Notes under the pieces: model-generated
Seen by the model: only the letters and a program-made list of their open reading frames with translations
The model's database searches: none
Told to the model about the DNA's origin: nothing
NCBI GenBank assembly: GCA_964016885.1
Contig: OZ024744.1
Location: forward strand, 81,840,001-81,904,000
DNA from: Eledone cirrhosa
Taxonomy: Eukaryota
DNA length: 64,000 nt
Reading direction: 5' to 3'
Translations under genes and position numbers: made by a program
In this document: one piece after another, positions 16,495-57,860 of the stretch
How positions within the stretch are numbered: the first letter of the stretch is position 1
Layout: each line of letters opens with the position of its first letter

Positions 16495-19400
16495 TGAAAC
16501 AGTGAACAAAGAACAAGATTTTATAAATCTTGACATCTCCAATGCAAGAGATATGGTCCAGCAAGGGAGAACATTTGTAACTTTCGACGAGAAGGGTGTG
16601 TTTAGAATTAACTCACCCCTTGAAATAAAAGAAGACACAGTGCGAAAGACAGTGATCTTTAGGACTGTGTCCAATACCACGAGAAAGCCGATGTTTATTA
16701 GTCAAGGAGATATAGAAAATACCTTGAAAGAAATTCTAGCAAATATCGAATTTCTCCAGCGAAGAAAACAGTACGGAAGTGTTTCCGTACTATTTAAAAG
16801 CGAAGCACTCGCCCCAAAACATTCTGTGACACCAATAGTGTCAAAAGCATTCACCCTTTTCCCTACATACATGGGAAAAAGGACACAAAAAATAAAAATA
16901 AAAAATATACCACCAAACATTAACATCTGGTGGATCTTAGCTGGCTTCGTAGAGCCAGAGACTGATATGATTCTTTCGATACGAAAGTCTATTCGACAAA
17001 GGTAGACGGGTACTGATTTGGAGATTCTGTTGTAAATACACACACCGAAACACAACCACCACACAATATACCCCTACCCCACACCCCTGACGATGATTAT
17101 TCATCGACGGATGAAGTTGCTCTCCTTCTCTAAGTGAAGAGGGAGACGCGCGGAAATCTAAAAAAAACAAAAAAAGAGACACTACAAAACCCCCAAAACT
17201 CCAATCACCAACACCAACACCAACACACAACCACAGACACAAACAACAACACAAACAACACCACAGTCTAGCATCCAACACCCCATCCAGCACCCAAATG
17301 AAGATTGAACAACCCGATCTCCAGGAAACGAAAAGGTAAGTGCACCTTTCGTCCTTTTTCTCCAACTCTTCTTCACAAACATGGCTAGTTTACGAGTTGG
17401 AAGCGTGAATGTGCGTGGCCTAGGGATGCCCTGGAAACAGGGCCAACTTTTAAACGACCTTAGTTCACACGGTATGGATGTGATAGCCATCACCGAGTCC
17501 AGGATCCACAACAAGCAGCAACTAACCCCCATCTTCAACGACTTTGAGATCTACGCATCTCTCTGTTAGCCAGGAGGTGGAGGGGGAGTGGCTGTCATGT
17601 TTCGGATGAACCTGGACCTCGAAGTACAGCAAGTACACTTGGACCCGGAGGGTAGACTGGTAGTCCTAGACGTGAACAGTATTGAGGGTGGAGCCTTCAG
17701 ACTGGTGGCCGTATAGTCTCCGACCGGGCAATCGCAATCACGGCCAGACTTCTTTAAGCGTCTAGAGTCTTTTCTGGGAACGTCTCGCTCCTTACTTTTA
17801 GTTGGGGACTGGAATGGTATCCTAGATGCACGATGGGACTATTTGGGAGCATGTCCCAGTAGAGGGGGGCGGGGTGCAACAGCCTCAAAACTTTAACCGG
17901 CGAATTCCACCTGGCCGATAGGTATTGACTGGATTTCCGACTGAACCACAGTGGACGTGGGCAAACCGCAGTGGGACATCTAGATCGTATTTAGACAGGT
18001 TCTTCATTAGAGAAAGGGACAAGGAGATGTTAAGCTGTCCACGAATGCACATGGTTGCCTATTCAGATTCACAAATTAGTCGTCTGCATAGTCAACCGTT
18101 GCAGGACACATAGAGATGGACCCGGATATTGGAAGCTGAACGTGTCGTTGCCGGCACGTAAAGCTTATAGTGAACGGATAAGTAGACTAGTCAAGCAACA
18201 GTTAACGGGAGTCATTGTCAACAATAGATGGCGGTACTCTCTCAAGAAAGCAATTAAAGTAGAATCGATAGGGTTTAGCAGAGAGTTAGCCTTAGAGAAA
18301 AACAAAATAGAAAGAGAACTAGTAGCCAAGGTAGATGAGGCACTTAGAAGTGGCAACGCGGCTAGAGTGTTAGCGTCGAGAACGGCACTGGACCAGTTCT
18401 TCGATGCGAAACACGAAGGCTGCGTGGTCAGAAGAAAAACACGTGCTCTAGGAAACGAAGGAGCGAAAGCTGTCAGCTGGCCCCGAGTGGAGGAGGCAAA
18501 AAGTGGCAACAAGTCCACGATTCGGTCTTTGAAAGACCAAAACAGACGCGTGCTACTTGACCCCAAACAAATGTGCGTGGCCTTTCAGCAGCACTTTGCG
18601 CGACTGTTTGAGCAGAACGACGGTGAGCCGAACGGGGTAATGGACTTTAGTTCATACCTCGACGGCGTCCTCGAAGCCGTCTACTGCAATTGGCAGCAGA
18701 ACGGGAGAATTCCCAGTTCTGCAGGCAAGTGCGTAGTAACGCTGATCAGGAAAGACGAGAACAAGGGGACGAATTAACAACTTCAGGCCCATAACTCTGC
18801 TCAACACAGAGTTAAAGATTTTGGCCAAGGTGCTAGCGACGAGGTTGGCGCTTGTCATCGAGAACCTGGTAGGAAAAGCGCAAACGTGTGCAATCCCGAC
18901 CAGGTCCATACACGACAACCTCCACCTCATGCGATACATCATAGAGAAGGTGGGTAGTAAACTCGGCTTCGGTGGGGCTCTGATCAATTTGGATCAGTCT
19001 AAGGCGTTCGATAGGCTCGACCATCGATACTTGAAAGCGGTTCTCAAGGCGGCTGGTTTTGGTCCCGTTTTCAGAGGCTGGATCGAAGCGATGCACACCA
19101 GCATCTGCTCGAGGGTCAAGGTGAACGGCTACCTATCGGAGCCGTTCGCAATCACGTGTTCCATTCGACAGGGGTTCCCTCTCTCCTCCATTCTGTATGA
19201 ATTGACTCTAGAGCCACTACTGCGGAAATTGGAGCTGTTGCAGGGCAACCCTCTAGAACCGGGACTGCGCAAAGCGGCGTTGGCGTATGCCGACGACGTG
19301 ACGGTAATGGTGTCGAGTACCTCGGAAATCGGGGTGATCGGCAACTTACTGAAAGAATACAAAACGCTGACGGGAGCAAAACTAAACCCGGACAAGTCTG

Positions 19401-20865
19401 TCAGTTTGCAACTCTGTACGTGGAGAGGCAAACCGATGACATCCGACAGCGTCGTTGGACGCTGGCCGGATGGACCGTGGAAATTACTCGGGGTCTGGTT
19501 CGGTTCAGACCTCCAGGTGGAGAAAAACTGGAACGAGGTAACGGCCAAGGTGTTTGCGCTCACCCAGAAGTGGGCAGAGTGCAAACTGTCCTTAAAAGGC
19601 CGAGCGGACGTGGCGAACACTTTCATAGCGTCCGTCATCTACTACCGCTTGACTGCCAAGATGGAACGCATGCTCTTCCAGTTTTTGTGGAAGAAGCAGG
19701 CTCCGCTGGTGAGGGGATCCGTCTGCTCTCAGCACCCTGCCAACGGAGGGCTGGGAATGCCGTGGCTGATGATGCGCAAACATGCGCTGAGGCTGCGGCA
19801 TCTCCAGCTATTCCTCACCGGCCCCAACCGGTTTGGCCACTGTTTGTGAGACAGGCTTTCCCACAGCGTGTCTCACTGACGGAGCTGCATTCCTGGGTGA
19901 AGAAAAGACCGAAAACGATGGGAGCCTGGCACATTGAATGCGCTCAGCCGCTCACAGTCCTCTGGCAAGCGGGAACAGCAATCAGTGGAGACTCCACTTC
20001 GACATTCTATAGAGGGATTGTACGTTATAAGGGCTACGACGTGCTCCGAGAGACTCTGGGCGTCGAAGACGATGAGGTCACCAGTCTGTTCGGTAGGACT
20101 TTCCGACCGGGACCTATGGACAACTTCCAGAGGTCCCTGGCCTGGCAATGCTATCGAGGAGCTCTACCGGTTCGTGACAAGATCTACAGGCACGGACGCC
20201 CCGGCAGGGATCCTTCCAAGAGGACGTGTCCAAGATGCGCGCAGGATATTGAAACCGTCCTGCACGTAATTGTACACTGCCCGGGGGTAACCGACCTGTG
20301 GAACTATGCAGAACAACTGCTGTCGCGTATGGGACAAATCCAGTTGACTGCCGAGTCCATAGTAAGGATCAAACCGCCAGCCTTTTTCAAAAACGAAAGA
20401 TGGACGGTTTTCCTCTGTACAGTGGCTATGGTGAAAGAAGTAATATGGTGGACGAAATTGAGAGGACAGAGGACAAATGCCTTTCTCTCCGGACAACAAT
20501 TGATTCCCTTCTTTAAGTATCACTTTAGAAGGAGAATCAGAGTGGAGAGAGAGGCACTGCACCCCAGTAAATTTACTGAAATGTGGGTGAATGAATAAAA
20601 AATGATTGGGCCTTCTCTGTTAATAAGCCTGTAGGTTAAATAAGAGAGCAAAAGCAAGAAAGGAGCACTTGCATAACACGCTCCTGGAGTTGAGGGTTGT
20701 TCTATCGACGTGATATTAAACAACCCATTTGTGGCGCTTTCCCCCTATTGGGATTTCGATTGTTGTAATTGTTTGTTTTTTATTTTTTAAATGACTGTAT
20801 GTAAAATCCCCGGTATGTCTTTGTATTGTCCCCTTTTCTTGTGCGCCCTTGTGGCAAATAAAGAA

Positions 20866-20938
<73 letters not shown>
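16495..20938 (+). mobile_element. Tx1-type LINE copy B (5'-truncated, internal deletions) with AATAAA and (CTAT)n tail
   Basis: ORF1 remnant, APE, RT with YADD, CPRC..H...HC zinc finger; tail about 20866-20938. Confidence 0.92.
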
Positions 20939-20939
<1 letters not shown>

Positions 20940-23900
20940 GCCCTGGAAACAGGGCAAACTTTTAAACGACCTCAGGTCGCATAGTATGGGTGTAGTAGCC
21001 ATTTGCGAGTCCAGGATCCACAGCGAGCGACAACTGGCCCCCATTTTCGACGACTCTGAGATCTACGCATCTCTCTGTCAGCCGGGAGGTGCGGGTGGGG
21101 TTGCCGTTTTGCTGCGGAAACACCTGGACCTCGTAACACAGACGGTACATCTGGAACGGGGGGGGGGGGGTTAGACTGGTTGTCCTATACGTTGTCGGTA
21201 GTGAAGGTGGAGCCTTCAGGCTGGTGGCCGCATATGCCCCATCCGGGACACCGCGCCCAGACTTCTTCAAACGTCTAGAGAATTTTCTGGGAACATCCCG
21301 CTCCCTGCTGTTAATGGGGGTCTGAAATGGAATGCTAGATGCACGTTGGGACTATGTGAGAGCATGTCCCGATAGAAGGGAGTTTAACAGCCTGAAACAG
21401 TTAATCGGCCGATTTGACCTGGCCGATAGATATCGACTAGATTTTCCGACTGTGCCACTGTGGAAGTGGACTAATCGTAGCGGACCATCTAGATCGTACC
21501 TAGATAGGGACACGTTAAGCTGTCCACAAATGTTCATGGTTGCCTATTCAGATCACAAACTAGTGACCTGCATGGTCAACCTTGATAGAACCCATAGACA
21601 AGGACCCGGCCACTGGAAGCTGAAATTATCGTTACCGACATGCAAAGCCTACAGTAGACGGATTAGCACTCTAGTTAAACAGCACTTGACAGGGGCCATT
21701 TCAACAACAGATGGTGGTACTCTCTCAAGAGGGCAGTTAGATTAGACTCGTTAGTTTTTAGTAAAGAATTAGCGGTAGATAGAAATAAGACCGAGAAGGA
21801 ACTGGTGGATAAAGTAGAAGAGGCAATTAGAAGTGGCAACGTAGCCAGAGTGCTAGCCACGAGAACGGCCTTGGACCAGTTCTTCGACGCAAAGCACGAG
21901 GGCTGCGTTGTCAGAAGCAAAATACGTGTTCTGGGTAACGAGGGAGCCAAAGCTGTTAGCTGGGCCCGAGTGACGGGTGCGAAAAGTGGGAACAAGTCCA
22001 CGATTCGGTCTTTGAAGGACCAAGACGGACGCGTGATACGTGAGCCGAAGCAGATGTGCGCGGCCTTTCAGCGGCACTTTGCTCAACTGTTCGGGCAGGG
22101 CGGCGCGCGGGAAGGGGCTATGGATTTCGGTTCATACCACGACGGCCTACCGCGACTCTCGGACAGCGAGGCGAAATTCTGCGAAAGGCCGATTTCGGCC
22201 GCTGAGATAAGGGACGCGCTGAGCCAATGCGGCAAACGCAAATCTCCAGGTCTCGACGGTCTACCCTACGAATTTTACGTAGCAATGTCGGACTTGTTCT
22301 CCGGTCTCCTGGAAGCGGTCTACTGCAACTAGCAGCAGAACGGGAGAATTCTCAGTTCTGTGACCAAGGGCGTAGTCACGTTAGTCAAGAAGGACGAGAA
22401 TAAGGTGGATGACATAGGTAACTTCCGGCCCATAACTCTACTAAACACAGAGTTACAGATTTTCGCCAAGGTGTTGGCAAGGAGGCTGCCGCTTGTCGTC
22501 GAAAACCTGGTGGGAGAAGCGCAGACATGCGCAATCCCGACCAGGTTCATACAGGACAACCTCCACCTCATGCGATACATCATAGAGAGGGTAAGGCGTA
22601 AATCCGGCTTCCGTGGGGCCTTGATCAACTTGGATCAGTATAAGGCTTTCGATAGGGTTGACCATCGTTACCTGGATGCGGTGCTCGAGGCTTCGGACCC
22701 GTGTTCAGGGGCCGGATTGCTGCAATGCACAGCAGCAACATCTGCTCAAGGGTCAAGGTGAACGGCTACCTCTCGGAGCCGTCCCATATTACGCGATCCA
22801 TCCGACAGGGATGCCCTCTCTCCTCCATTCTGTACGTACTGACTCTCGAACCACTACTGCGGAAGTTGGAGCTATTGCAGGGCATGCCTTTGGGACCGGG
22901 ACTGCGAAAAGCGGCATCGGCATACGCCGACGACTCGACAGTAATGGTGTCGAGCACCTCGCAAATCGGGGAGGACGGCACCTTACTGAAGGAATACGAA
23001 AAGTTCACAGGAGCGAATCTGAACCGGGATAAATCCGTCGGTTTGCAACTCGGAACGTGGAGAGGCAAACCGATGCCTTACGATGGCGTCGTCGGACGCT
23101 GGACGGAAGGACCGGTAAAGCTGGTCGGAGTCTGGTTTGGTCCGGACCCCCAGGTGGAGAAGAACTGGAACGAGGTGACGGCCAAGGCATTTGCGCTCAC
23201 CCAGAAGTAGGCCGAGTGCAAACTATCCTTGAAAGGTCGAGCGGAGGTGGCGAACACTTTTATAGCGTCAGTCATCTACTATCGCTTGACCGTCGTGCCT
23301 TGTCCAGCCAAAACGCTCACCAAAATGGAACGCGCGCTCTTCCAATTACTTTGGAAGAAACGGGCTCCTTTGGTGAGAAGATCCATCTGTTGCCAACACC
23401 CTTCAAACGGAGGGCTGGGGATGCCGTGGCTGACGATGCGCAAACACGCGCTCAGGCTGCGGCACCTCCACGTATTCCTCACCGGACAACCGGTGTGGGA
23501 CCCGTTCGTGAGGCGAGCCTTCCTACGACTCGTCTCGCTGACCGAGCTGCAGTCCTGGGTCAAGCAAAGACTGAGGAAAATGGGCACATCGATTGTGCTC
23601 AGGCGCTCACAGTCCTCTGGCAAACGGACCCGGCGATCAGTGGAGACTCCACTTCGACATTCTATAGAGGGTTGGTCCGCAGCAAGTGCGACGACGCGCT
23701 CGGAGAAACTCTAGGCGTAGAGGAGGACGAACTGGCCAGTCTGTTCGGTAGGACCTTCCGCCCGTGACCAATGGACAACTTCCAAAAGTCCCTGGCCTGG
23801 CAGTGCTACCAAGGAGCTCTACCAGTTCGAGACAAGCTCTACAGATACGGGCGCACGGGCAGGGACCCTTCGAAAGAGATCTGTCCGAGATGCGTGCGCG

Positions 23901-24572
23901 ACGAGGAAACCGTCGCGCACGTATTTGTACACTGCCCGGGCGTTCCCGACCTGTGGGGCTATGTAGAACGACTATTGTCGCGGGTGGGACCAATCCAGTT
24001 GATTACCGAGTCCATTGTCATGATTAAACCGCCACCCTCCTCAAAAACGAGGGAGAGGCGGTTTCCTATGTGTTATGGCTATGGTGAAAGAGGTTATATG
24101 GTGGACGAGGTTAAAAGGGCTGAGGTCAGATACCTTTCTCTCCGGCGAGCAACTGATTCGTTTTTTCAAATATCATTTTGGAAGAAGAATCAGGATGGAG
24201 AGAGAGGTGCTGTACCCCAGCAAATTTTATAAAAGGTGGGTGGATGTGGCAAAGATGGCCCCAGTGGTTGGGCCTTCTCTCTATATAAGCCTTTAGGTTG
24301 AGGAAAAAGAGGAAGAGAGGAAGCTAATACTCACTCTTGGTGCTCCTGGAGATGAGGGTTGTACATTTTTTCGGGATGTGTACAACCTCTATGTAACGCC
24401 TCCCCTATTGGGGATTTAAATTGTTATTTATTGTTTTGTACTGGATAATTGCTGGCCTTGTGCCTAAAGTAGAAACAGTTATTTTATTAATAGTTTTATT
24501 TTCATATACCTGTATGTAAACTCCCCATTTGTATTTGTCCCCTTCTTTTGTGCCTTTGTGGCTAATAAAGAA

Positions 24573-24639
<67 letters not shown>

Positions 24640-24679: not shown

Positions 24680-25002
24680 AGTCGTGTGTCACTTCGCGGA
24701 GAAGTTTCCGTTAATTTATGTAAGGAAAAAACGTGAGTTTTTAGTTCAATTTTATATCATTGTGTAACTTGACCACCCGTCTGGACCTTCAGGTGGTGGG
24801 TCAACTCATTTTCGCCCCTTCAGGGGCGGAATATCCATTAAAAAAATTTTTCTCCATCGAATCTTGGAAAAAATATTGTAAAATTTTGATTACGTTATGA
24901 ACGCTGCGTCCAACGATAATGGTGGTGGAGAGGCGGTAAGACTACAAAGCTCGCAGTCAACAACGTCTTCTTCACTAGATACTATAGAGATGGAAAGACA
25001 AA

Positions 25003-26811
25003 ATGAAAATAAAAAAAACGAATTCACATCCAAACAACACAAATGACACCAAACAGCTCAATGACAACAAAAATAACAGCAAAACCAATAATGATGATAA
25101 AAGCAATAATGATAACAACAACAAAGAAAAAAATAAAGACAACGCCAATAACACCAGCATCAAAGACAACAACAACACCAAGGAAAATACGGATGATACC
25201 AACATCGGTGACAACAAGAATAACAACAAGAATAACAACAATAATGACAACACCACCAATACGGATTCCACAAAGAAACCAAAAATCTCCTTTGCGGAGA
25301 AAGTTCAAAAGAAAGAACAATTGATATATCTCGACATAACAAATGCTGAACACCTTTTAAAGGACGCTAAGAGATATGTCACCTTCGAAAAAAATGGTGC
25401 TTTCAGCATCAATTCTCCGGTAGAAATTCGCAAGGAAACTGCTCTCAAAACGATAGTTTTTAGGACAGTTTCCAATTCTACCCGAAAACCAGTCCAATTG
25501 TCACAGAAAGATATTGAACTGGTTTTCAAAGATTCAATGAATGATATTGCATTCATTCAAAGAAGCAAACTTTTTGGGAGTATTTCGGTACTGATGAAGG
25601 ATCAATTGACGGCCCAAAATTACTCTGTGTCGCCAATTGTATCCAACCTGTACACCTTTTTCCCTACATACATGGGAAAAAAGACACAAAAGATCAGAAT
25701 CACAAGTGTCACACCAAAGGTGAACATATGGTGGATACTGTGCGGCTTCATCAATTTTGATGAAGACAGAATACTGTCAGTAGGAAAGTCCCCCAGAGAT
25801 GTATTCAATGGGACTAGCTTTGAAGTTCTGGTGCAAATGAGCCCAGAGCGAATAGCTATGATCCCACAGCGTGTACTCCTGGACGGACTTACCTACATAA
25901 ACCTTTCGGTTGAGGGTAGGAGGCCTTCATGTTACCATTGCTTTAGCAGGGGTCACCTGAGGGCTTCCTGTCCTAAACTAATGAACCAAAAAAAGGCTCT
26001 TCTGCCGACACCCATCAAAACAACACAACCACCAACACCACCACAACAACAACACCAACACACAAAAATAACCACAACAAACACAGTCCCACCCAACCCC
26101 ACTCCACCTAAAACCACTGCAAAATCACATACAGACACAACAGCTCCCCAAGACATACCCCTCCCCAATCACACAGACGATACAACAGATGAGGCTATCT
26201 CGCCATCACCCAGTGAAGACGAGGGAGAACCCCATCGCTCGAAAAGAAAGAAAAGACATCACAAAAGCAAAAAACCAGCAAACACTACCACAAACATACA
26301 ACCACCAACACAAACAACAAAAATATCACAAACAAAACCCCCACCTCCTGAAAACAAAATACCTACAACAAAACGAAAGCACACACAAGAACTACAGACA
26401 AAAACAAACACAACACAAGAAAATTACACTTACACTTACATAAACACTGAAAACAAAACACTAATGGAGACCATCACGAACGACCCTTCGGTTTTCACCG
26501 AAGGGAAAACTTTCGCCCACTCTATAAAAAATAGCAAAAAACTGAACCTAAAACTGATTAGGGTCCCTATACAAACTTATAGGTCCCTAAAAGAAACATT
26601 TGAGAAGGATGTGGGGAATTCCTGCGTGAAACCACTCAACCGCGTCCTTCTCAAATGCCTCCCCACCTCAGACACCCCCATTCCACCAGACCCCACCCCA
26701 CCAAACATCTGCGTCCCCACCCCGCCGGAAACCGCCACCCATCCAGACAACCCCTCCAACACCCCCATGGAAATCGTGCGGCCTGGTCCCCAGGAGGCGA
26801 AGGGTGAGTGA
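25003..26811 (+). CDS. LINE ORF1p (CCHC zinc-knuckle nucleic-acid-binding protein); true start probably ATG 24897 with a 1-nt indel in an A run
   Basis: 602-aa ORF; CYHCFSRGHLRASC (CX2CX4HX4C); N-rich and T/P/Q-rich low-complexity tracts; homologs in copies A, B and E. Confidence 0.88.
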   Translation: MKIKKTNSHPNNTNDTKQLNDNKNNSKTNNDDKSNNDNNNKEKNKDNANNTSIKDNNNTKENTDDTNIGDNKNNNKNNNNNDNTTNTDSTKKPKISFAEKVQKKEQLIYLDITNAEHLLKDAKRYVTFEKNGAFSINSPVEIRKETALKTIVFRTVSNSTRKPVQLSQKDIELVFKDSMNDIAFIQRSKLFGSISVLMKDQLTAQNYSVSPIVSNLYTFFPTYMGKKTQKIRITSVTPKVNIWWILCGFINFDEDRILSVGKSPRDVFNGTSFEVLVQMSPERIAMIPQRVLLDGLTYINLSVEGRRPSCYHCFSRGHLRASCPKLMNQKKALLPTPIKTTQPPTPPQQQHQHTKITTTNTVPPNPTPPKTTAKSHTDTTAPQDIPLPNHTDDTTDEAISPSPSEDEGEPHRSKRKKRHHKSKKPANTTTNIQPPTQTTKISQTKPPPPENKIPTTKRKHTQELQTKTNTTQENYTYTYINTENKTLMETITNDPSVFTEGKTFAHSIKNSKKLNLKLIRVPIQTYRSLKETFEKDVGNSCVKPLNRVLLKCLPTSDTPIPPDPTPPNICVPTPPETATHPDNPSNTPMEIVRPGPQEAKGE

Positions 26812-26844
26812 TCTCTTTTCCTCTTTTAACTTTTCAGCACCAAC

Positions 26845-29800
26845 ATGGCCAATATAAGAGTTGGATGTGTGAACGTACGCGGCCTGGGGATGCCCTGGAA
26901 ACAGGGCAAACTCTTAAACGACCTCAGGTCACACAGTTTGGATGTGGTAGCCATTTGCGAGTCCAGGATCCACGGCGAGCGACAGCTGGCCCCCATCTTC
27001 GATGACTTTGAGATCTACGCATCTCTCTGTCAACCGGGGGGTGGGGGCGGAGTTGCCGTTTTGCTGCGGAAACACCTGGGCCTCGTAACACAGACGGTAC
27101 ATCTGGACCCGGAGGGTCGACTGGTGGTCCTAGACGTTGACGGTAGTGAAGGTGGAGCCTTCAGGCTGGTGGCCGCATATGCCCCATCCGGGACACCGCG
27201 GCCAGACTTCTTCAAACGTCTAGAGACTTTTCTGGGAACGTCCCGCTCCTTGCTTTTAGTGGGGGACTGGAATGGAATCCTAGATGCACGTTGGGACTAT
27301 GTGGGAGCATGTCCCGAAAAAGGGGGGTGTAACAGCCTCAAACAGTTAATCGACCGATTTGACCTGGCCGATAGATATCGACTAGATTTTCCGACTGCGC
27401 CACTGTGGACGTGGAGTAATCGTAGCGGAACATCTAGATCGTACCTAGATAGGGTTCTAGTTAGAAATAAAGATAGGGACATGTTAAGCTGTCCACAAAT
27501 GTTCATGGTTGCCTATTCAGATCACAAACTAGTGACCTGCATGGCCAACCTTGATAGAACCCATAGACAAGGACCCGGCTACTGGAAGCTGAACTTGTCG
27601 TTACCGACAAGCAAAGCCTACAGTAGACGGATTAGCACTTTAGTTAAACAGCACTTGACAGGGGCCATTTCAACAACAGATGGTGGTACTCTCTCAAGAG
27701 GGCAGTTAGATTAGACTCGATAGTTTTTAGTAAAGAATTAGCGTTAGATAGAAATAGAACCGAGAAGGAACTGGTAGATAAAGTAGAAGAGGCAATTAGA
27801 AGTGGCAACGTAGCCAGCGTGCTAGCCACGAGAACGGCCTTGGACCAGTTCTTCGACGCAAAGCACGAGAGCTGCGTTGTCAGAAGCAAAATACGTGCTC
27901 TGGGAAACGAGGGAGCCAAAGCTGTTAGCTGGGCCCGAGTGACGGAGGCAAAAAGTGGCAACAAGTCCACGATTCGGTCTTTGAAGGACCAAAACGGACG
28001 CGTGATACGTGAGCCGAAGCAGATGTGTGCAGCTTTTCAGCGGCACTTTGCTCGGCTGTTCGGGGGGAGCGGCGCGCCGGGAGAGGCTATGGATTTCGGT
28101 CCATACCTCGACGGCCTACCGCGACTCTCGGACAGTGAGGCGAAGTTCTGCGAAAAGCCGATTTCAACCACTGAGATAGGGGACGCGCTGAGCCAATGCG
28201 GCAAACGCAAATCTCCAGGTCTCGACGGTCTACCCTACGAATTTTACGTAGCAATGCCGGACTTATTCTCCGGTTTCCTGGAAGCGGTCTACTGCAACTG
28301 GCAACAGAACGGGAGAATTCCCAGTTCTGTAACCGGGGGCGTGGTCACACTAATCAGGAAGGACGAGAATAAGGGGGATGACATAGGCAACTTCCGGCCC
28401 ATAACTCTGCTAAACACAGAGTTACAGATTTTGGCCAAGGTGTTGGCAAAGAGGCTGGCGCTTGTCGTCGAGAACCTGGTGGGAGAAGTGCAGACATGCG
28501 CGATCCCGACCAGGTCCATACACGACAACCTCCACCTCATGCGATACATCATAGAGAGGGTAGGGTGTAAACCCGGCTTCGGTGGGGCCCTGATCAACAT
28601 GGATCAGTCTAAGGCTTTCGATAGGGTTGACCATCGTTACCTGGATGCGGTGCTCGAGGCGGCAGGCTTCGGACCCGTGTTCAGGGGCTGGATTGCTGCA
28701 ATGCACAACAGCAACATCTGCTCAAGGGTCAAGGTGAACGGTTACCTCTCGGAGCCGTTCCATATTACGCGATCCATTCGACAGGGATGCCCTCTCTCCT
28801 CCCTTCTGTACGTACTGACTCTCGAGCCACTACTGCGGAAGCTGGGGCTATTGCAGGGCATCCCTCTGGAACCGGGACTGCGGAAAGCGGCGTCGGCCTA
28901 CGCCGACGACGTGACAGTAATGGTGTCGAGCGCCTCGCAAATCGAGGAAGTCGGCACCTTACTAAAGGAATACGAAAGTCTCACAGGAGCGAAGCTGAAC
29001 CGGGACAAGTCCATCGGTTTGCAACTCGGATCGTGGAGAGGCAGACCGATGCCTTCCGATGGCGTCGTCGGACGCTGGACGGAAGGACCGGTAAAGCTGC
29101 TCGGGGTCTGGTTTGGTCCGGACCTCCAGGTGGAGAAGAACTGGAACGAAGTGACGGCCAAGGTGTTTGCACTCACCCAGAAGTGGGCCGAGTGCAAACT
29201 ATCCTTGAAAGGTCGAGCGGAGGTGGCGAACACTTTTTTAGCGTCCGCCATCTACTACCGCTTGACCGTCGTGCCTTGTCCAGCCAAAACGCTCGCCAAA
29301 ATGGAGCGCGCCCTCTTCCGATTCCTTTGGAAGAGGCGGGCTCCTTTGGTAAGAAGATCCATCTGCTGCCAACACCCTTCTAACGGAGGGCTGGGGATGC
29401 CGTGGTTGACGATGCGCAAACACGCGCTCAGGCTGCGGCATCTCTACGTATTCCTCACCGGACAACCGGTGTGGGCCCCGTTCGTGAGGCGAGCCTTCCC
29501 ACGACTCGTCTCGCTGACCGAGCTGCAGTCCTGGGTCAAGCAGAGACCGAGGAAAATGGGCGACTGGCACATCGAATGTGCTCAGGCGCTCACAGCCCTC
29601 TGGCAGGCGGACCCGGCGATCAGTGGAGACTCCACTTCATCATTCTATAGAGGGTTGGTCCGCAGCAAGTGCGACGACGCGCTCGGTGAAACTCTAGGCG
29701 TGGAGGAAGATGAACTGGCCAGTCTGTTCGGTAGGACCTTCCGCCCGGGACCGATGGACAACTTCCAAAAGTCCCTGGCCTGGCAGTGCTACCGAGGAGC

Positions 29801-30281
29801 TCTACCAGTTCGAGACAAGCTCTACAGACATGGGCGCCCGGGCAGGGACCCTGCAAAAAAGATCTGTCCGAGGTGCGTGCGAGACGAAGAAACCGTCGCG
29901 CACGCATTCATACACTGCCCGGGCGTCACTGACCTGTGGGGCTATGTAGAACGACTATTGTCGCGGGTGGAACCAATCCAGTTGACCACCGAGTCCATTG
30001 TCATGATCAAACCGCCACCCTCCTTCAAAAACGAAGGAGAGGCGGTTTTCCTTTGTGTGATAGCTATGGCGAAAGAGGTTGTATGGTGGACAAGGTTGAA
30101 AGGGCTGAGGTCAGACACCTTTCTCTCCGGCCAACAACTGATTCTTTTTTTCAAATACCACTTTTGAAGAAGAATCAGGATGGAGAGAGAGGTGCTGTAC
30201 CCCAGCAAGTTTTATGAAAGGTGGGTGAAAGTGGCGAGAATGGCCCGAGTGAATGGGCCTTCTCTCTATATCAGCCTGTAG
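26845..30281 (+). pseudogene. LINE ORF2p (APE endonuclease - RT - CCHC) with one frameshift at about 27670 and one late stop at 30165
   Basis: ORFs 26845-27714 (NVRGL, GDWN, YLDR, SDH) and 27819-30167 (KSPGLDG, NFRPITLLN, QGCPLS, YADD, CPRC..H...HC); the frame continues to TAG 30281 by comparison with copy C. Confidence 0.92.
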
Positions 30282-30517
30282 GTTGAGGAAAAGGAGGAGG
30301 AGAGGAAAGGAGTACAAGCTCTTCGTACTCCTGGAGATGAGGGTTGCACATTTTTTTCGGGGGTCTGTGTTACCCATATAAACTGTCTCCCTCTATTGGG
30401 GAAAATCGACTAACTTTTAAATTCCATCTGTGATAACATTTTACACGTTTTTATTGTATGTAAACTTCCCCCTTTGTATTTGTCCCCTTCTTTTGTGCCC
30501 CTGTGGCTAATAAAGAA

Positions 30518-30588
<71 letters not shown>

Positions 30589-33500
30589 GGACGTGCGGTA
30601 GATCGTCGGTAAGTTTTTGTAACATTTTTATACAAAAACAGAATTTATTGTGTGAACATTTATATTGTTTGATAGATTAACACCCAGGCTGAATTGTCAG
30701 CTGGGTGGTAATCTCAGTTGTCGCCCCACAGGGGCGGAAATTTAATTAAAAAATTATTGAGAAGTTTTAAAATTTTCCTTGACTGTAACAATGTGTGACA
30801 TACAGAAAACGCTAGACAGCGAGAAGAGAGGGAAAGAGGCAGATATGAGCGTTATATCTCCCTCTATTTCCATAGCAGTATCTATGGAGACAAACAACAA
30901 CAAAACTTCGTTTCGTAAAGAAATAGATATTTACACAACAAAAGATGGAAATAACAGCCCACAACAGACACCAAAATATACAGAAAATGCAGAAATTGAA
31001 ACAATTGACACAACTACACGCGAAAAAACCGACAACAACAAAATTGAAAAAACAACGTTCGCTCAGACTGGGATAAACAAAAGAGTACAAACACATCGAC
31101 ATAAGCAACTCCAAACAAATGTTGACCGATGCAAAACAATTCATAACCTTTGAAGAAAAGGGTGGGTTTGAAATAAACTTGGAAATTAAACGAGAAACAG
31201 TTCGAAGGACAGTAACTTTCAGAACTGTTTCAAATCAAACAAAAAAACCGGTATTCCTCAGTCAAGGGGAAATTGAAACCACCTTGAAAGAGGCTCTGCC
31301 GGACATTGATTTTATGGAGAGGGCCAGACTATATGGAAGTATTTCGGTACTTTTTAAAAGCGAGGCCCTCGCACAAAAGCATTCTGTTACACCAGTCATC
31401 ACAAAAACACACACCCTTTTCCTTACTTACATGGGAAAAAGAACACAAAAAATTAAAATAAATAACATACCACCAAACATCAACATTTGGTGGATCTTAG
31501 CAGGGTTCATAGAGCCAGACTGTGACACAATTCTTTCGGTCAGGAAGTCGACCAAACAAAGTTGGGCAGGGACAAATTTGGAAATTCTGATATAAATGAA
31601 ACCAGAAAGAATTTCCAAAATCACCGAAAGAGTGCTGGTCGACAACCAAAACTACATTAACATTGTAACTGAGGGCAGAAAGCCACATTGTTTTCGATGT
31701 GCAAGCACATCACACCTAAAAGCCTCCTGCCCTTTACAAACAAATAAAAAAAAAGTACTTTTACCAACACCAACACCAAAACAATCACCACCACCACAAC
31801 AACAACACACAAAACAAGCAAACGCACCCAAACAAACAACCACTCAATCACAAACAACAGAAAAAACACAAACAGCACCTCTGAAGAACACAGCCCCACC
31901 CCACCTCACTCAATCAAACACTACCACAAACACACAGACCAAAACACCATCACCACACAACATACCCCTACCCCACACTACTGATGATGATTATTCATCA
32001 ACAGATGAGGTTGCTTCCCCTTCTTTAAGTGAAGAAGAAGAAGAGCCTCGGAAATAAAAAAACAACAAAAAAAGAGACACCACAAAACCACCAAAACTCC
32101 AATCACCAACACACAACCACAGACACAAACAACAACACAAACACCACAACAACCAAACCTCCCCCTACCAACCAAACAAACACCCCCCCCAAACATAAAA
32201 AAGAAAACTCACAGACGAACAAGAAACTAAAACAACACAACCAAAACAAAAACAACAATATACATACATTAGCACCAACAACAAAAATTTGATGGAGGTC
32301 ATCTCACAGGAACCCAAAGTGGAAACTGAGGGGAAAACTTTTGTAAAAGCAGACTCTGAACCACACCTAAAACTAATAAGGGTTTCGAAAGAAACCTATC
32401 AGAAATTGAAAGAACAGTTTTCGCAGGATGTTGGCAACCCCTGCCAAAAACCTATTAACCGCGTCTTATTAAAATGTTTCCCCACCCCACCCAACACCCC
32501 ATCCAGAACTGAAATGGAGTTTGAACAACCCGATCTCCAGGAAACGAAAAGGTAAGTGCACCTTTTCGTCCTTTTCGCCAACTCTTTTCCACCAACATGG
32601 CTGACTTACGAGTTGGAAGCGTGAATATGCGTGGCCTAGGGATGCCCTGGAAACAGGGCCAACTTTTAAACGACCTTAGGTCACATGTTATAGATGTAAT
32701 AGCCATCACCGAGTCCAGGATCCACAACAGGCAGCAACTAACCCCCATCTTAAATGACTTTGAGATCTACGCATCTCTCTGTCAGCCGGGAGGTGGAGGG
32801 AGAGCGACTGTCATATTTCGGAAAAACCTGGATCTCGAAGTACAGAAAGTACACTTGGACCCGGAGGGTAGACTGGTAGTACAAGACGTGAACAGTATTG
32901 GAGGTGGAGCCTTCAGACTGGTGGCCGTTTATGTCCCGACCGGGCAATCACAATCGCGGCCAGACTTCTTTAAGCATCTAGAGTCTTTTCTGGAAACGTC
33001 TCGCTCCTTGCTTTTAGTGGGGGACTGGAATGGTATCCTAGATGCACGATGGGACTATGTAGGTAGAGCGGGGTGCAGCAGCCTCAAAAATCTAATCGGC
33101 CAATTCCAACTGGCCGATAGATATCGACTAAATCTCCCGACTGCACCACAGTGGATATGGGCAAACCGCAGTGGGACATCTAGATCGTATCTAGATAGGT
33201 TTTTCATTAGAGGAAAGGACAAGAAGTTGTTAAGCTGTCCACAAATGCACATGGTTGCCTATTTAAATCACAAATTAGTCGTCTGCATAGTCAACCGTGA
33301 TAGAATATATAGACAAAAACCCAGATACTGGAAGCTGAACGTGTCGTTGCCGGTGAATGGATAAGTAGATTAGTTAAGCAAGAGTTGACGGGTGCCATCG
33401 TCAACAATAGATGGTGGTACTCTCTCAAGAGAGCAATTAGAGTAGAATCGATAGTGTTTAGCAGAGAATTAGCTTTAGAGAAAAACAAATCAGAAACAGA

Positions 33501-36153
33501 ACTAGTAGTCAAGGTAGAAGAGGCGCTTAGGTGTGGCAACGCAGCTAGAGTGTTAGCATCGAGGACGGCACTGGACCAGTTTTTCGACGCGAAACATGAA
33601 AGCTGCGTGGTCAGAAGTAAATCACGTGCTCTAGGAAACGAGGGAGCAAAAACTGTTAGCTGGACCGAGTGGCGGAAGCGAAAAGTGGCAACAAGTCCAC
33701 GATTCGGTCTTTGAAAGACCAAAATTGACCCCAAGCAGATGTGTGCGGCCTTTCAGCAGCACTTTGCGCGACTGTTTGAGCAGAACGATGGTGCACCGAA
33801 CAGGGCAATGGACTTTGGTTCATACCTCGACAGCCTGCCACGCCTCTCAAGCATGGACGCCGAGTTCTGCGAAAGACCTATCACAGCCACTGAGATACGG
33901 GACGCTCTGGGCCGCTGCGGGAAACGCAAATCACCCGGTCTAGATGGTCTACCCTATGAGTTTTACATAGGCATGCCGAACTTGTTCTCTGGCATCCTCG
34001 AAGCCGTCTACTATAATTGGCAGCAGAACGGGAGAATTCCCAGTTCTGCAAGCAAGGGCGTAGTAACGCTGATCAGGAAAGACGAGAACAAGGGTGACGA
34101 AATAAACAATCTCAGGCGCATAACTCTGCTCAACACAGAGTTAAAGATTTTGGCCACGAGGCTGGCGCTTGTCGTCGAAAACCTGGTTGGGAAAGAGTAA
34201 ACGTGTGCAATCCCGAGCAGGTCCATAGACGACAACCTCCACCTCATGCGATACATCATAGGGAGGGTGGGGTGTAAACCCGGCTTCGGTGGGGCTCTGA
34301 TCAATTTGGATCAGTCTAAGACGTTCGATAGGGTCGACCATCGATACTTGGAAGCGGTTCTCAAGGCGGCCGGTTTCGGTCCCGTTTTCAGAGGCTGGAT
34401 CGAGGCGATGCACACCAGCATCTGCTCGAGGGTCAAGGTGAAGGGCTACCTATCGGAGCCGTTCGCAATCACGCGTTCCATTCGACAGGGATGCCCTCTC
34501 TCCTCCATTCTGAACGTATTGACTCTAGAGCCATTACTGCGGAAGTTGGAGCTTTTGCAGAGCATCCATTTAGAACCGGGACTGCGAAAAGCGCCGTCGG
34601 CTTATGCCGACGACGTGACGGTAATGGTGTCGAAAACCTCGGAAATTGAGGTAATCGGCAACCTACTACAGGAATACGAAAGGTTCACAGGAGCAAAACT
34701 GAACCCGGACAAGTCTGTCGGTTTGCAACTCGGAACGTGGAGAGGCAAACCAATGCCGTCCGACAGCCTCGTTGGACGCTGGACGGAAGGACCGGTGAAA
34801 TTGCTCGAGGTGGAGAAAAACTGGAACGAGGTATTTACGCTCACCAAGGTATTTACGCTCACCCAGAAGTGGGCAGAGTGCAAACTGTCTTTGAAAGGTC
34901 GAGCAGAGGTGGCGAACACTTTCATAGCGTCCGTCATCTACTACCGCTTGACTGTCGTGCATTGTCCCCGTGAATACCTCGCCATGATGGAATGGATGCT
35001 TCCAGTTCCTGTGGAAGAAGCAGGCTCCACAGGTGAATAGACCCGACTGCTGTCAACATCCTTCCAACGGAGGGCTGGGCTTGCCGTAGCTAATGATGCG
35101 GAAACATGCGCTGAGGCTACGGCATCTCCAGGTATTCCTCACCGACCAACCGGTGTGGGCACCGTTTGTGGGACAGACCTTCCCACAACTTGTCTCGCTG
35201 ACGGAGCTGCAGTCCTGGGTCTAGCGGACACAGCAATCAGTGGAGACTCCACTTCGACATTCTATAGAGGGTTAGTACTTTATAAGTGCGACAACGTGCT
35301 CTGGGAGATTTTATGCATCAAAGACAACGAGCTCCCCATCTGTTCGGTAGGACTTTCCGCCCAGGACCTATGGACAACTTCCAGAGGTCTCTGGCCTGGC
35401 AGTGCTACCGAGGTGCTCTGCCGGTTCGTGACAAGAACTACAGGCATGGACGCCTCGGCAGGGATCCTTCCAAGAGGACTTGTCCAAGATGCGCACAGGA
35501 CATTGAAACAGTCCTGCACGCAATTGTACACATCCCGGGCGTAACCGATCTGTGAAACTATGCAGAACAACTGCTGTCGCGTATGGGATAAATCCAGTTG
35601 ACTGCCGAGTCCATAGTAAGGATCAAACCGCAAGCCTCTTTCAAAAACGAAAGAGAGGCGGCTTTCCTCTGTTCGGTGGCTATGGTCAAAGAGGTTATAT
35701 GGTGGACGAGATTGAGAGGACTGAGGACAGATGCCTTTCTCTCCGGACAACAATTGATCCCTTCTTTAAGTATCACTTAGAAGGAGAATCAGAGTGGAGA
35801 GAGAGGCACTGCACCCCAGTAAATTTACTGAAAGGTGGGTGAATGAAGCGAAAATGGCCCGAGTGATTGGGCCTTCTCTGTTTATAAGCCTGTAGGTTGA
35901 AGAAGAGAGCAAAAGGAAGAAAGGAGCACTTTCACAACACGCTCCTGGGGTTGAGGGTTGTTCTATCGACGGGGTATTAAACAACCTATTTGTGGCCCTT
36001 TCCCCCTATTGGGGATTTCGATTGTTGTAATTGTTTGTGTTTATATTTTTTACACGACTGTATGTAAAATCCCCGGCATGTCTTTGTATTGTCCCTTTTT
36101 CTTGTGCACCCTTGTGGCAAATAAATTAATCTATCTATCTATCTATCTATCTA
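30589..36153 (+). mobile_element. Tx1-type LINE copy E, full-length but decayed (same subfamily as A and B)
   Basis: Starts in the tail of D; fragmented ORF1 and ORF2; short (CTAT)n tail at about 36130-36153. Confidence 0.92.
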
Positions 36154-38711: not shown

Positions 38712-40275
<1,564 letters not shown>

Positions 40276-47990: not shown

Positions 47991-48310
47991 TAATTTTTTA
48001 CCAACATAGAGACGAGGCTCTTTCATCGGAATTTGGGCAACATCAACTAGGTAAATATGTATGTATGTTTGCATGCGTGTGTTTGAGTGCGTCTATGTGT
48101 GTATATGTGTGTAGGTATGGTTATTGTTGTATGTGTGGATCTGTATGCTTTGAGTTATAAGTGTACACGTGCGTATATTTTGTATCTATACATGTGTATA
48201 TGCAGTTATTAGATGCCGAATTTTAGGAATGTTTTACATATTTATGTATGTACGTACGCATGTATGTATATATGTTTGTGTGTATGTATGTATTTATGTA
48301 TGTATGTATG

Positions 48311-51300
48311 GACCGCTCTTGTTGCAAAGGAGCTTCGACGTTACGATCTTGACATCGTAGCTTTATCTGCTCTTGTGGATAAATTAGAAGAATTCCCAGT
48401 AGGGATTAGTGAGCGTCTTATGTCCATGAGAATTCCGCTGGACAAAGGAAGATATGCGACCCTGGTGAGTGTGTATGCTCCAACTATGAATTCTGTCGAT
48501 GAACAAAAAGTGTCCTTTTACCATGCCTTGAAAGGTCTTTTAAGAAATATCCCTCAGGCAGACAAGGTCATCGTGCTTGGTGACTTTAATGCTAGAATGG
48601 GTAGGGATTTTAACACATGGAATGTAATCGGAAGGCATGGGCTGGGAAAGTGTAACAACAATGGTATGCTCCTGCTGCAGATGTGTGAGGAGCTGGATCT
48701 GTGTGTTACCAACACCATGTTCCAACAAAAGAACAAATTTAAGACTACATGGATGCATCCTGCATCTAAGGAATGGCATGTTATGGACTACGTCCTAGTC
48801 AGGATGTGCAGTGTGTTCGTGCTCTTCGTGGGGCTGAGTGCTGGACAGACCACCGCCTGGTACGTGCAAAAGTGAAACTAATCACTAAACGTAAAATCCG
48901 GGCTTCTGGTGTTACTCTGCCCAGAAGATTGAATGCTGCTCGAGATAAAAATGTGAAGAGGACATTGCGAGAAGAGTTGCATGTTGCAGATCTTGGTGAG
49001 TATTGGCCGACCCTTAAAAAGTCGGTTTATGATGTAGGCAGGTGTGTTCTGGGATTGGTGCAAAGAAAACATCAAGACTGGTTTAATGAGAATGATGTAC
49101 ATATAGAAGACTTGTTGGCTGATAAGAGGCGAGTTCTATCACGCTACTTGACGGCAAAACCACAGGAGAAGAATATGTTGCATAAGGAACTCAGGGATGT
49201 AAAATCGCGTGTGAGGCGGAGTCTTTCTCAGATGAAGGATAAGTGGTGGAGTGAGGAGGCTGATGAGATACAAGCTGCGTCAGATTCCAATAACACAAAG
49301 CTGTTGTACAGTCTCTTGCGTGAAGTTTATGTACCATCGTCTTCTCTGGTGACACCGCTTTGCAGCAAGGATGGCAAGGAACTTCTTCATGACTCACAAG
49401 GAATTCTGCGAAGGTGGCGAGAGCACTTTGAGGAACTTTTGAATCAGCCGTCTGTCGTCAATGAAGATTTCCTCAATCTCATCCCTGAAAAACCTGTGAA
49501 AGTAGCTCTCGCAGAACCTCCGACGCTTGTGGAGGTTGCAGTAGCTATCTCGAAGCTGAACAGTGGAAGGTCTCCAGGTATGGATGGCATACATGCTGAG
49601 CTTCTACAATATGGTGGTGAGAGACTCCTGCAACATCTTCACTCTTTGTTTGGCAGGATATGGGCTAGTGAATCCATACCTGAGGACTGGAGAGATGCAG
49701 TAATGGTGGTCTTGTACAAGGGAAAGGGTAACAGGAACGATTGTGGGAACTACAGAGGTATATCATTGCTTTCTGTCGTAGGAAAAGTTTTATGTAGGGT
49801 GCTTCTGGACCGTCTGCTGACACACATTGTAGATTGTGTTTTCCTGAAAGTCAATCTAGTTTTTGTGCTGCACGCGGCACTACTGATATGATCTGCTCAG
49901 CTAGACGGCTCCAGGAGAAGTGCATGGAACAAGGTTTGGATCTGTATCAGGTTTTTGTCGATCTGACAAAAGCTTTCGATACTGTTAACAGATATGCATT
50001 ATGGAAGGTTCTCCAGAAACTTGGTTGCCCTGATAATTTCCTTGCTTTAGTTACGTCTTTCCATGACGACATGAAGGCTTGGGTTAATGTCGGAGGTAAC
50101 ATGTCGGAGCCTATCTCAGTAAAAAATGGAATGAAACAGGGGCATATTTCAGCACCGACCCTATTTGCCATATACTTTGCAAAGGTTTTCTGTATTGCAT
50201 TCAGGAATTGCGAGCATGGTGTTTACATCCAATATCGAACCTGTGGCAGCATATTTAACATCAGGCGCTTTGCTGCAAAAACAAATGTATTTACATCAAT
50301 CATAAGAGACCTCTTGTATGCAGATGGTTGCGATCTTGTGCACACAGAGTGATATGCAGCACATTTTGAATGCATTTTCCGATGCTTGCACTGCCCTAGG
50401 ATTGACTCTCGTCTCAAGAAAACCGTCGTCATGTACCAACCTGCCCCTGGTAAGCAGTACAGTGAGCCAAATATATATGTTTATGGTATACGGCTTGGAG
50501 TGGTTGATCAGTTTGTCTACCTGGGAAGCACTGCCAATTGATACAGCAACCTTGATAATGAAATTCCACTCAGGATTAGGAAAGCAAGCGATGCTTTCGG
50601 AAAGCTAGAAAAGCGCCTCTGTGGTCGGCGAGACATATGCAAGAAGACAAAGGTAAAGGTGTACAAGGCATGAGTACTCTCTTCTCTTCTTTATGCCTGC
50701 GAGACCCGGGTCACATATCGACACCACCTTAAGCAATTGGAGCGTTTCCATCAGATGTGTCTCAGACGGATCCATGGCGTTCACTGGAGGGACAACATCA
50801 GTGATGTCGAGATTTTGGAAAGCTCTATGTGTGACAGTATAGAAGCTCTTGTGCTTAAGCAACGACGCCGTTGGAGTGGTCACCTTGCCAGGATGAAGGA
50901 TTCTAGAATACCAAAACAACTATTTTATGGTGAGTTAGTTAAAGGAAAACGACCGCCACATAAACCAAAAAAAGAGGTATAAGGCTCCTTGAAAGCCTCT
51001 TTGAAAGACGCTAACATCTCTGCTGATACATGGGAAAATGTAGCTGCTGATCGTAATAAATGGAGAAAGACTGTATATGAGGGAAAAGTTGCCTTTGAGG
51101 CATCTCGAATCGCATACGAGAAAGTAAAGCGGGATGTGAGGAAGGGCATTGCTGTTGCACTTCCAGACGGCGAGGGTCCTCCTATGGTGCTGACATGCAG
51201 CGTATGTGCGAGACTCTGCCTAAGCAAAGCTGGACTCGAAAGTCATCTTCGCAGTCATAAAGTAAGACCAGTGGTTGACTACCAGGCTGCTGTTGGAGAT

Positions 51301-56862: not shown

Positions 56863-57256
56863 ACTTACTTTCTCTCCCTCTCTCTCTCTCACTTGCATTC
56901 TCTCCATCTCTCTCTCTCACTTACTTTCTCTCCGTCTCTCTCTCTCTCACTTGCATTCTCTCCATCTCTCTCTCTCACTTACTTTCTCTCCGTCTCTCTC
57001 TCTCTCACTTACATTCTCTCCATCTCTCTTACTTTCTCCCCCTCTCTCTCCCTGTATCTCCGTCTCTCCGTTTTTCCTTTTCTTTTACTTCTTCTTCTCT
57101 CCCCTTTCTCCCTACTACAGATTATCTTGTAGTATATTATTGTTGTTATTGTTGTTATTGTTGTTATTGTTATTATTGGTGTTGTTAATGTTGATGATAT
57201 TTCTGTTACTGTTGTTTTGTTTTGGTAGTTGTTCTTGATATCGTTGTTGTTTTTGC

Positions 57257-57293
<37 letters not shown>

Positions 57294-57308
57294 ATGTTGT
57301 TGTTGTTA

Positions 57309-57341
<33 letters not shown>

Positions 57342-57533
57342 CGTCGTCGCCGACTATGCTGATGTTGTTGCTGATGATGTTGTTGCTGATGATGTTTATA
57401 TTTTTGTTTTCGCGGTGGTCGTCGTTGCTGGTAATAATATTTTCTGCTGCTTTTGTTGATTTGTTGCCTCTGTTGTTGTTGTTGTTGTTGTTGTTTTTGT
57501 TGTTGTTGTTGTTGTTGTTGTTGTTCTTGTTGT

Positions 57534-57600
<67 letters not shown>

Positions 57601-57860
57601 CCTTTTGTTGTTAATATTGTTTGCTGTTCCTGTTGTTTTTTTATTGCTGCTTTTGCTGTTGTTGTTGTTGGTGTTATTGGTGCGTTTGCTGTTGTTGTTG
57701 TTGTTTTTATTGGTGCGTTTGTTGTTGTTGTTTTTATTGGAGCTTTCGCTGTTGTTGTTGTTGTTTTTATTGGAGCTTTTGCTGTTGTTGTTGTTGCTGT
57801 TGCTGTTATTTCTGTTGTTGCTGTTGCTGTTGCTGTTGCTACTGTTGTTGTTGTTATTAT
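56535..57860. repeat. (CT)n-rich cryptic repeat followed by (GTT)n cryptic repeat
   Basis: Direct reading; switch at about 57120. Confidence 0.95.

Follow-up and report, generated by a model that had tools for sequence, protein, structure and literature searches.

Organization of the Tx1-Like LINE Copies in the Window

The stretch of the Eledone cirrhosa genome analyzed here, 64,000 nucleotides (nt) of contig OZ024744.1 (positions 81,840,001 to 81,904,000; assembly GCA_964016885.1) and hereafter called the window, harbors five copies of one young group of Tx1-like long interspersed nuclear elements (LINEs) with (TATC)n tails between positions 2027 and 36131. A predicted splice donor at the end of the first open reading frame (ORF1) of these elements is the subject of this study. 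The letters given to copies and subfamilies are labels of this analysis, and the five copies lie on the + strand. Copy A (subfamily D, 2027..6834) is without a 3' end, and copies B, C, E, and D2 form a head-to-tail run in which every copy ends in AATAAA followed by (TATC)n. Copy B (subfamily D, 16495..20868) and copy C (E'-like, 20938..24575, with ORF2 and the 3' untranslated region, UTR) are 5'-truncated. The focal copy, a full-length member of subfamily E (24680..30520), is directly flanked by two (TATC)n tails, and a (TATC)n tail or target at 30521..30588 separates it from copy D2 (subfamily D, 30589..36131), which is full-length and degenerate.

ORF1 of the focal copy (24897..26811) shows one CCHC motif and a putative RRM-like region. 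This reading frame is followed by a pyrimidine-rich spacer (26812..26844), in which an AG at 26836-37 occurs only in E-related subfamilies, by ORF2 (26845..30281), which encodes an APE endonuclease, a reverse transcriptase, and a zf-RVT domain, and by a 3' UTR (30282..30514) with a purine-rich tract, a stem-loop, and AATAAA at 30509-14. The focal copy is broken: ORF1 has a 1-nt frameshift near 25010, and ORF2 has both a frameshift near 27670 and, at 30165-30167, a premature TGA; an intact copy (L078) encodes an ORF1 of 638 amino acids and an ORF2 of 1145 amino acids. The family is young: over 601 nt, the focal copy shares 99-100% identity with each of the 40 genomic copies scored, and a degenerate pattern for the ORF2 start gave 2,079 exact matches in the genome.

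ORF2 matched the Pfam families PF03372, PF00078, and PF13966, and its best relative of solved structure was L1 ORF2p (E 7e-52), with R2 at 2e-22. ORF1 carries one CCHC motif in its sequence, for which the Pfam match was weak (E 0.24, below the cut-off), and its Atlas look-alikes were zf-CCHC/RRM proteins at 0.90-0.92. Among named relatives, a protein of Argonauta hians comes closest, at 56-66% identity. The copies begin after and finish in (TATC)n, forming tandem arrays of mixed families. As judged from its ORF2 domains and this microsatellite target preference, the element is a Tx1-like LINE of the L1 group.

The choice of microsatellite differs between sister clades: L078, L061, and L087 end in (TATC)n and L119, L395, and L405 in (ATT)n, and the H and T relatives terminate in (ATT)n. 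The (TATC)n and (ATT)n clades thus offer a natural set for mapping endonuclease target choice. In one locus (L120, G000:C1:423362127-423414666), ten H-family copies form a regular head-to-tail array with a spacing of about 5.84 kb.

A Conserved Splice Donor at the End of ORF1

The donor motifs reported in the preliminary description were found at the positions given there, AG|GTAAGT at 4053 (copy A), 17336 (copy B), and 32552 (copy D2) and GG|GTGAGT at 26804 in the focal copy. The predicted donor of the focal copy (26801..26811, with the cut after 26803) overlaps the last codons and the TGA stop of ORF1. The motif had been noted in two subfamilies; it is kept well beyond these, in 15 subfamilies with ORF2 identity down to about 69%. 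Among 42 distinct copies (50 drawn by the ORF2-start pattern, minus 8 repeats), a GT(A/G)(A/G/T)GT hexamer was present at the ORF1 end in 40, and the other two carried point changes. It was also present in H, L127, L133, T1, T2, and U, although in T1, T2, and U the ORF2 is about 69-71% identical to that of E and the ORF1 ends are unrelated.

The variants were limited to GTAAGT, GTGAGT, GTAGGT, and GTATGT. The ORF1 stop may be TAA, TAG, or TGA and the cut may fall in phase 1 or 2, while the GT at +5/+6 is constant; the spacer between ORF1 and ORF2 varies in length among families and is unrelated in sequence while the donor stays. By a simple score of our own for U1 matching, applied to the 237-307 sense GT dinucleotides of each copy, this site was the best or joint-best in 9 of 10 natural copies and the second in the remaining one, which is more than chance would give.

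A donor-like GTGAGT is also present in the 5' UTR of the focal copy at 24733..24738, and copies of D, E', and J1 have similar sites close to their 5' ends. Such a second site, 20-55 nt from the 5' end, was seen in several subfamilies (24733-24738 and, in copy D2, 30609-30614; also L087, L088, L234, and L083), and the 5' UTRs that bear it are otherwise dissimilar between subfamilies. A donor-like site at the 5' end could suppress the AATAAA motifs of ORF1, of which this A-rich frame holds up to five. Two hairpins were seen by eye in the 5' UTRs of the E and D copies (24768-24830 and 30680-30740) despite low identity.

Hybrid Lineages Joined Exactly at the Donor

In one donor-directed search, three of the first 100 of 272 matches break off from the element precisely at the donor position. 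These three are members of a hybrid group, J, with at least 22 copies (22 matches to the join). In J1 and J2, ORF1 runs to the donor base and continues in family I right after a CAG located 23 nt before the donor of I; downstream of the join lie the spacer and ORF2 of I, 94-95% identical to L064. The J ORF1s are E'-type (92-95% identical to L046/L067) or of another type, and blastn found no match between them and the ORF1 of family I itself. Four copies make up J3, in which an E' ORF1 runs to the donor base and the sequence resumes inside a J1 element, directly behind a CAG that lies 76 nt before the donor of that element. These 76 nt in the middle of J3 have the bases diagnostic of J1, so that J3 is not a local duplication. 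J2 may derive from J3, and J1, J2, and J3 were therefore counted as two events.

A further hybrid, T1, surfaced in a search for ORF2 ends that was not directed at the donor. Its ORF1 is 76-77% identical to that of U and 65% to that of T2, whereas its ORF2 is 96-97% identical to that of T2; the switch falls exactly at the donor position of U and leads into T2 after a CAG about 44 nt before the donor of T2. All three hybrid joins (J1, J3, and T1) thus connect the donor base of one parent to a CAG 23-76 nt before the donor of another element, with ORF1 swapped.

For background, 20 departures from the element were counted in 151,095 nt of ORF2 (114 copies, about 1.4 kb each), and backward joins away from the donor numbered 2 in 361,456 nt over both surveys. 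With an estimated copy number of 2,500-4,000, the rough probability of two such joins at one position is 1e-4 to 2e-3. A control AG 23 nt upstream showed no distant join in 13 matches. Loci L353 and L355 have the same parents joined in register, by homology, which shows that recombination of the ordinary kind takes place as well. At the surveyed loci, deletions of 80-2,150 nt inside the element were frequent. From the position statistics, we consider it quite probable that the hybrids J1, J3, and T1 arose by splicing. Of the spliceosomal use proposed in the preliminary description, the donor side appears to hold in these hybrids, but the TAG acceptor was not seen used.

Candidate Acceptor at the End of ORF2

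The preliminary description had further proposed that splicing removes the whole of ORF2, with its stop codon acting as the acceptor. TAG|GTT was confirmed at 20634 (copy B), 24296 (copy C), 30281 (focal copy), and 35895 (copy D2, TAG at 35893-95), and the TAG at 30279-81 lies in the reading frame of ORF2 and is the true ORF2 stop in the intact L078. The candidate acceptor (30258..30281) consists of a pyrimidine run, an alternative AG at 30273-74, and the stop TAG; the competing AG, 7 nt upstream of the TAG, is absent from the earlier account, as are the spacer AG at 26836-37 and the donor-like 5' UTR sites at 24733 and 30609. AATAAA follows about 230 nt beyond the ORF2 stop, after the purine tract.

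With an acceptor score built on assumed base frequencies, the ORF2-stop AG ranked 2-8 among 260-274 downstream AGs in E, E', D, F, G, H, and I, that is, in seven of the 11 families scored; it ranked 16 in L133, 23 in J, and 42 in U and was missing in one family, and L127 yielded no score. The case for the acceptor is moderate, weaker than that for the donor. The family without it is T. A pattern for this distant clade gave 6,031 matches, with ORF2 ending in TAA in 82 of the 100 matches listed, and ORF2 was open in 5 of 7 fetched T loci. An abundant and intact family hence has no AG at the ORF2 stop and yet keeps the donor, and conservation of the TAG as an acceptor does not hold: the 3' splice site is lost in T and weak in J and U. 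The top-ranked AG of T (1 of 262) lies in the 3' UTR, where the sister family U is without one.

Read in the phase of the donor, a stop follows within two codons of the TAG in all five phase-1 families (as TGA, TAG, or TAA) and in 3 of 9 phase-2 families, and it stands directly after the TAG in F, G, and J. Spliced through the TAG, D, E', M, N, and I would gain unrelated tails; through the AG 7 nt upstream, their products would stop after two codons. The basic tail foreseen for the spliced product of D2 had been read correctly from the sequence. Such an in-phase stop would fit the need of an ORF1-only message, but this is no more than suggestive: the families share ancestry, and in T the +3 stop persists although no AG is there.

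The last 20 codons of ORF2 were not unusual in their synonymous conservation (0.78 against a mean of 0.61; rank 95 of 1,088 windows). A six-pair hairpin in the last ORF2 codons (30242..30259), inside the proposed intron, is kept in 15 sequences, and none of its pairs has both partners changed; for U, a reading by eye of a compensatory change was not confirmed on checking. In a stem-loop of the 3' UTR (30308-30332), 7 of 15 sequences show changes in both partners of one pair, and this stem-loop and the hairpin are candidates for recognition by the reverse transcriptase. Elsewhere in ORF2, about codons 894-913 of L078, all 49 of 49 pairwise fourfold-degenerate sites were identical across five families (mean 0.61), and this invariant 20-codon stretch hints at an overlapping RNA or DNA element.

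Search for Copies Lacking ORF2

If ORF2 were spliced out as a whole, retroposed copies with a precise donor-to-TAG junction might be expected in the genome. The exact predicted junctions gave no genomic match, against 303 exact matches for the unspliced 23-mer across the E donor. Open searches, in which the exon end was followed by anything off-consensus and every match was read, returned 17 matches for the E type, none joined to the ORF2 stop, with about 550 unspliced donors (estimated from 92 of the 100 matches listed, of 601). For D there were 24 off-consensus matches, none joined to the TAG, with 665 unspliced donors. For E'/K there were 44 + 1, again none joined to the TAG and 7 of the 44 being J loci. 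About 240 further unspliced donors were estimated from 89 of the 100 matches listed, of 272. F and H gave one and two off-consensus matches, respectively, none joined to the ORF2 stop. On the 3' side, 21 + 3 matches stood against 4,203 unspliced E-type ends; none was a donor join, all being local deletions, duplications, or 5' truncations.

Precisely ORF2-less retroposed copies were thus found neither among about 1,450 donors (a total that leaves out the unspliced F, H, and GTGAGT-type E' donors) nor among the 4,203 3' ends of the families searched (E, E', D, F, and H; T and U were not searched). Of the three outcomes that the preliminary description had named as refuting, two therefore speak against the TAG as acceptor, namely the lack of such copies in the families searched and the loss of the TAG in T. 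The ORF1-only progeny anticipated in the preliminary description, with ORF1 and the 3' UTR as in HAL1, were likewise missing from these five families, and every splice-like join that was found takes an AG other than that of the ORF2-stop TAG. An abundant RNA bearing the element's own 3' end should probably leave some copies; the cis preference of L1 weakens this negative result. Among contig joints on the element from four runs of unrecorded kind (15 of 278 covered), no donor-to-acceptor joint occurred, nor did one occur among six joints from three of those runs on the E-tandem acceptor-to-donor stretch; these counts are evidence neither way.

Some other candidate joins were rejected. A mini-intron of 34 nt from the donor to the spacer AG is contradicted by the lack of that AG in D, F, G, I, H, T, and U, and no copy of this kind was present among the off-consensus E and E'/K matches. 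In L225, a D donor runs in register into a minisatellite unit whose last letters are TAG, and in L277 the donor region is joined about 90 nt into ORF2 after a TAG; each is a single copy within background and was not taken as evidence. The 21-nt minisatellite array (L225 and L282-L284, G000:C5 from 21848353) extends over more than 36 kb, its end not being reached, and the D-like fragment of L225 adjoins (TTC)n.

Proposed Function of the Donor

We tentatively favor the explanation that the clade conserves a U1-binding donor without a fixed 3' partner, which is occasionally spliced into the next element. Besides the conservation of the donor and the hybrid joins, it is favored by the fact that T and the distant L424 have the donor but not the TAG. 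The element would have to leave most of its RNA unspliced to yield ORF2p and template. U1 likely binds the donor at the ORF1 end and perhaps also a second site near the 5' end. As the copies are stacked in microsatellites, transcriptional read-through is likely to reach the next copy, the own donor of which would define an exon of 23-76 nt, and the upstream donor would then likely be spliced to the AG just before the donor of the next element. The product would combine the promoter and ORF1 of the upstream element with the ORF2 and tail of the downstream one and would be copied back as a hybrid family; such an RNA would carry ORF2 in cis and so could amplify. The selected role of the donor may lie in the handling of the full-length message, either protection from early termination or control of export, by analogy with the Arabidopsis element EVD.

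Several points weigh against this explanation. ORF2 is without AATAAA in 8 of 10 copies, which leaves little downstream for U1 to protect. With an acceptor of top rank facing a strong donor, together with an enhancer-like tract and, 230 nt further on, a poly(A) signal, splicing would be expected. The donor and acceptor sides of the hybrid joins both end in AG, so that template switching or deletion at a 2-nt microhomology would give the same letters, and deletions at AG microhomologies are common, the 7 nt between two AGs being lost in 10 of 24 matches. Donor-directed searches were the source of J1 and J3, and any hybrid that retains both ORFs must have its breakpoint close to the donor. For J1 and T1, the fetched sequences did not include the exact parents in unhybridised form. 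Among metagenome relatives with 24-30% identity, a donor at the ORF1 stop was present in only 1 of 8 two-ORF elements (L424, the ORF2 of which ends in TAA), which makes the donor a trait of this clade and not of all L1-group elements.

A close rival, with which the favored explanation is not mutually exclusive, is that ORF2 is a retained intron, the donor being spliced at or near the ORF2 end to the TAG, to the AG 7 nt upstream or, in T, to the AG in the 3' UTR; we regard this as possible but rather doubtful. The ORF1-only mRNA would set the ratio of ORF1p to ORF2p and would seldom be copied since the proteins act in cis, a preference established for L1 (PMC5860796). The high rank of the ORF2-stop AG in seven families, followed by the purine tract and AATAAA, agrees with such an intron, as does the in-phase stop, by which the same or nearly the same ORF1p would be made in the five phase-1 families and in F, G, and J; the conserved hairpin at the ORF2 end would go with the intron. 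In T, which has lost the TAG, the first-ranked acceptor lies in the 3' UTR, where U has none, and this too agrees with a retained intron. Against it, the TAG is lost in T and weak in J and U, no join to the TAG occurred among the D, E, E'/K, F, and H donors searched or the 4,203 E-type ends, splicing to it would add unrelated tails in D, E', M, N, and I, the +3 stop is kept in T though no AG precedes it, and the last 20 codons are unexceptional in synonymous conservation. Part of the whole-ORF2 intron of the preliminary description stands, namely the strong and conserved donor, whereas its TAG acceptor is lost in T and its ORF2-less copies did not appear in E, E', D, F, or H. Low-level use of the ORF2-end acceptor is plausible whether the donor lacks a fixed partner or bounds a retained intron. 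Similarly doubtful, though possible, is a two-message programme like that of copia, in which ORF2 would be a retained intron with the acceptor on its own stop (in the 3' UTR in T), the junction would rebuild the ORF1 stop, and the donor would make ORF1 a swappable exon, joined in tandem arrays to the ORF2 of other families so as to found new autonomous lineages.

The donor might instead pair with an acceptor early in ORF2, the RNA ending at an internal poly(A) site as in the shGAG RNA of EVD and never being copied without the 3' tail. This would account for the lack of retrocopies; in E, F, D, G, and H, AGs with high scores are found repeatedly at about +235 and +450, and L277 joins the donor region to an early position in ORF2. 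However, L277 is one copy that fits a 2-nt microhomology deletion, within a background of 20 departures in 151,095 nt, and ORF2 has no conserved internal AATAAA, which leaves this explanation improbable. Still less credible is that the motif serves translation (termination and re-initiation at ORF2) or is a by-product of the stop letters, with the hybrids made by template switching at AG microhomology. All three stop codons do fit the donor consensus, AG microhomology deletions are common, and DNA-level swapping of ORF1 has been proposed for other LINEs (PMC4120745). Yet the non-coding GT at +5/+6 persists whichever of the three stops is used and in either phase, and the three joins fall precisely at the donor base, not in register with the perfect homology close by, which a template switch would favor.

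Comparison With Known Systems

The Tx1-clade LINEs Kibi and Koshi target microsatellites (PMC4494074), and L1-Tx1 is given as recently active in Octopus vulgaris (PMC13282606). Like Kibi and Koshi, the present element is a two-ORF animal LINE with APE and reverse transcriptase domains and a putative zinc knuckle in ORF1, stacked in microsatellites; it differs in that its targets are (TATC)n or (ATT)n, and no splice site at the ORF1 end is mentioned for Kibi and Koshi in the portion available. In the Arabidopsis Ty1/copia element EVD, U1 permits the shGAG RNA, which comprises the first gene only, and protects the full-length RNA (PMC5580714). Both systems have a 5' splice site after the structural gene, here a predicted one. 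EVD, however, is a long terminal repeat element with a short intron, a fixed acceptor, and an internal poly(A) site shown by experiment, whereas the present element is a LINE whose donor may have no fixed partner.

Retrotransposon subfamilies born by splicing include SVA_F1 (MAST2) and the chimpanzee SVA with STK40 (PMC6139936), and chimeras of mRNA and L1 end at splice donors (bioRxiv 10.1101/2025.02.02.635956). As in these cases, mobile lineages here appear to have been founded by a retrotransposed splice join. There, the donor belongs to a host exon and a promoter is gained; here the element's own donor would be used and a whole ORF1 exchanged between autonomous families. The SpIREs of human L1 are spliced LINE RNAs kept as genomic copies (PMC5860796). 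They lose sequence of the 5' UTR or ORF1 and are dead ends, whereas the hybrids described here kept both ORFs and amplified. HAL1 elements, ORF1-only derivatives of L1 (PMC5753468), are the type of product that the preliminary description had predicted and of which no copy was found here in the families searched. Exchange of ORF1 between LINE lineages has been ascribed to recombination or nested insertion (PMC4120745). The literature covered, which did not extend to Repbase Reports, most subscription papers, and supplements, yielded no description of a conserved donor at a LINE ORF1 stop, of a whole-ORF2 intron, or of ORF1 swapping by splicing.

Other Features of the Window

An unrelated broken LINE with APE and reverse transcriptase matches is located at 48213-50352. 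Related degenerate tandem repeats occur at 1-1460 and 57127-57867, and the segment 6842-7086 matches 38717-39003 on the opposite strand.

Implications for LINE Evolution

LINEs are treated as unspliced bicistronic RNAs, and splicing of their RNA is regarded as a dead end. In the present clade, the donor at the ORF1 end is a real feature, and the proposal of an intron spanning the whole of ORF2 is partly supported; the junctions that either use of the donor would produce are precisely predicted from the sequence. If the ORF1-only message is true, it would explain the presence of far more ORF1p than ORF2p and would give the host a splicing switch. It is likely that successful families of this clade were founded by splicing the ORF1 of one element onto the ORF2 of another. 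If they were indeed founded by splicing, this would provide a concrete route for the reticulate evolution of LINE ORF1s, which has so far been ascribed to DNA-level events.

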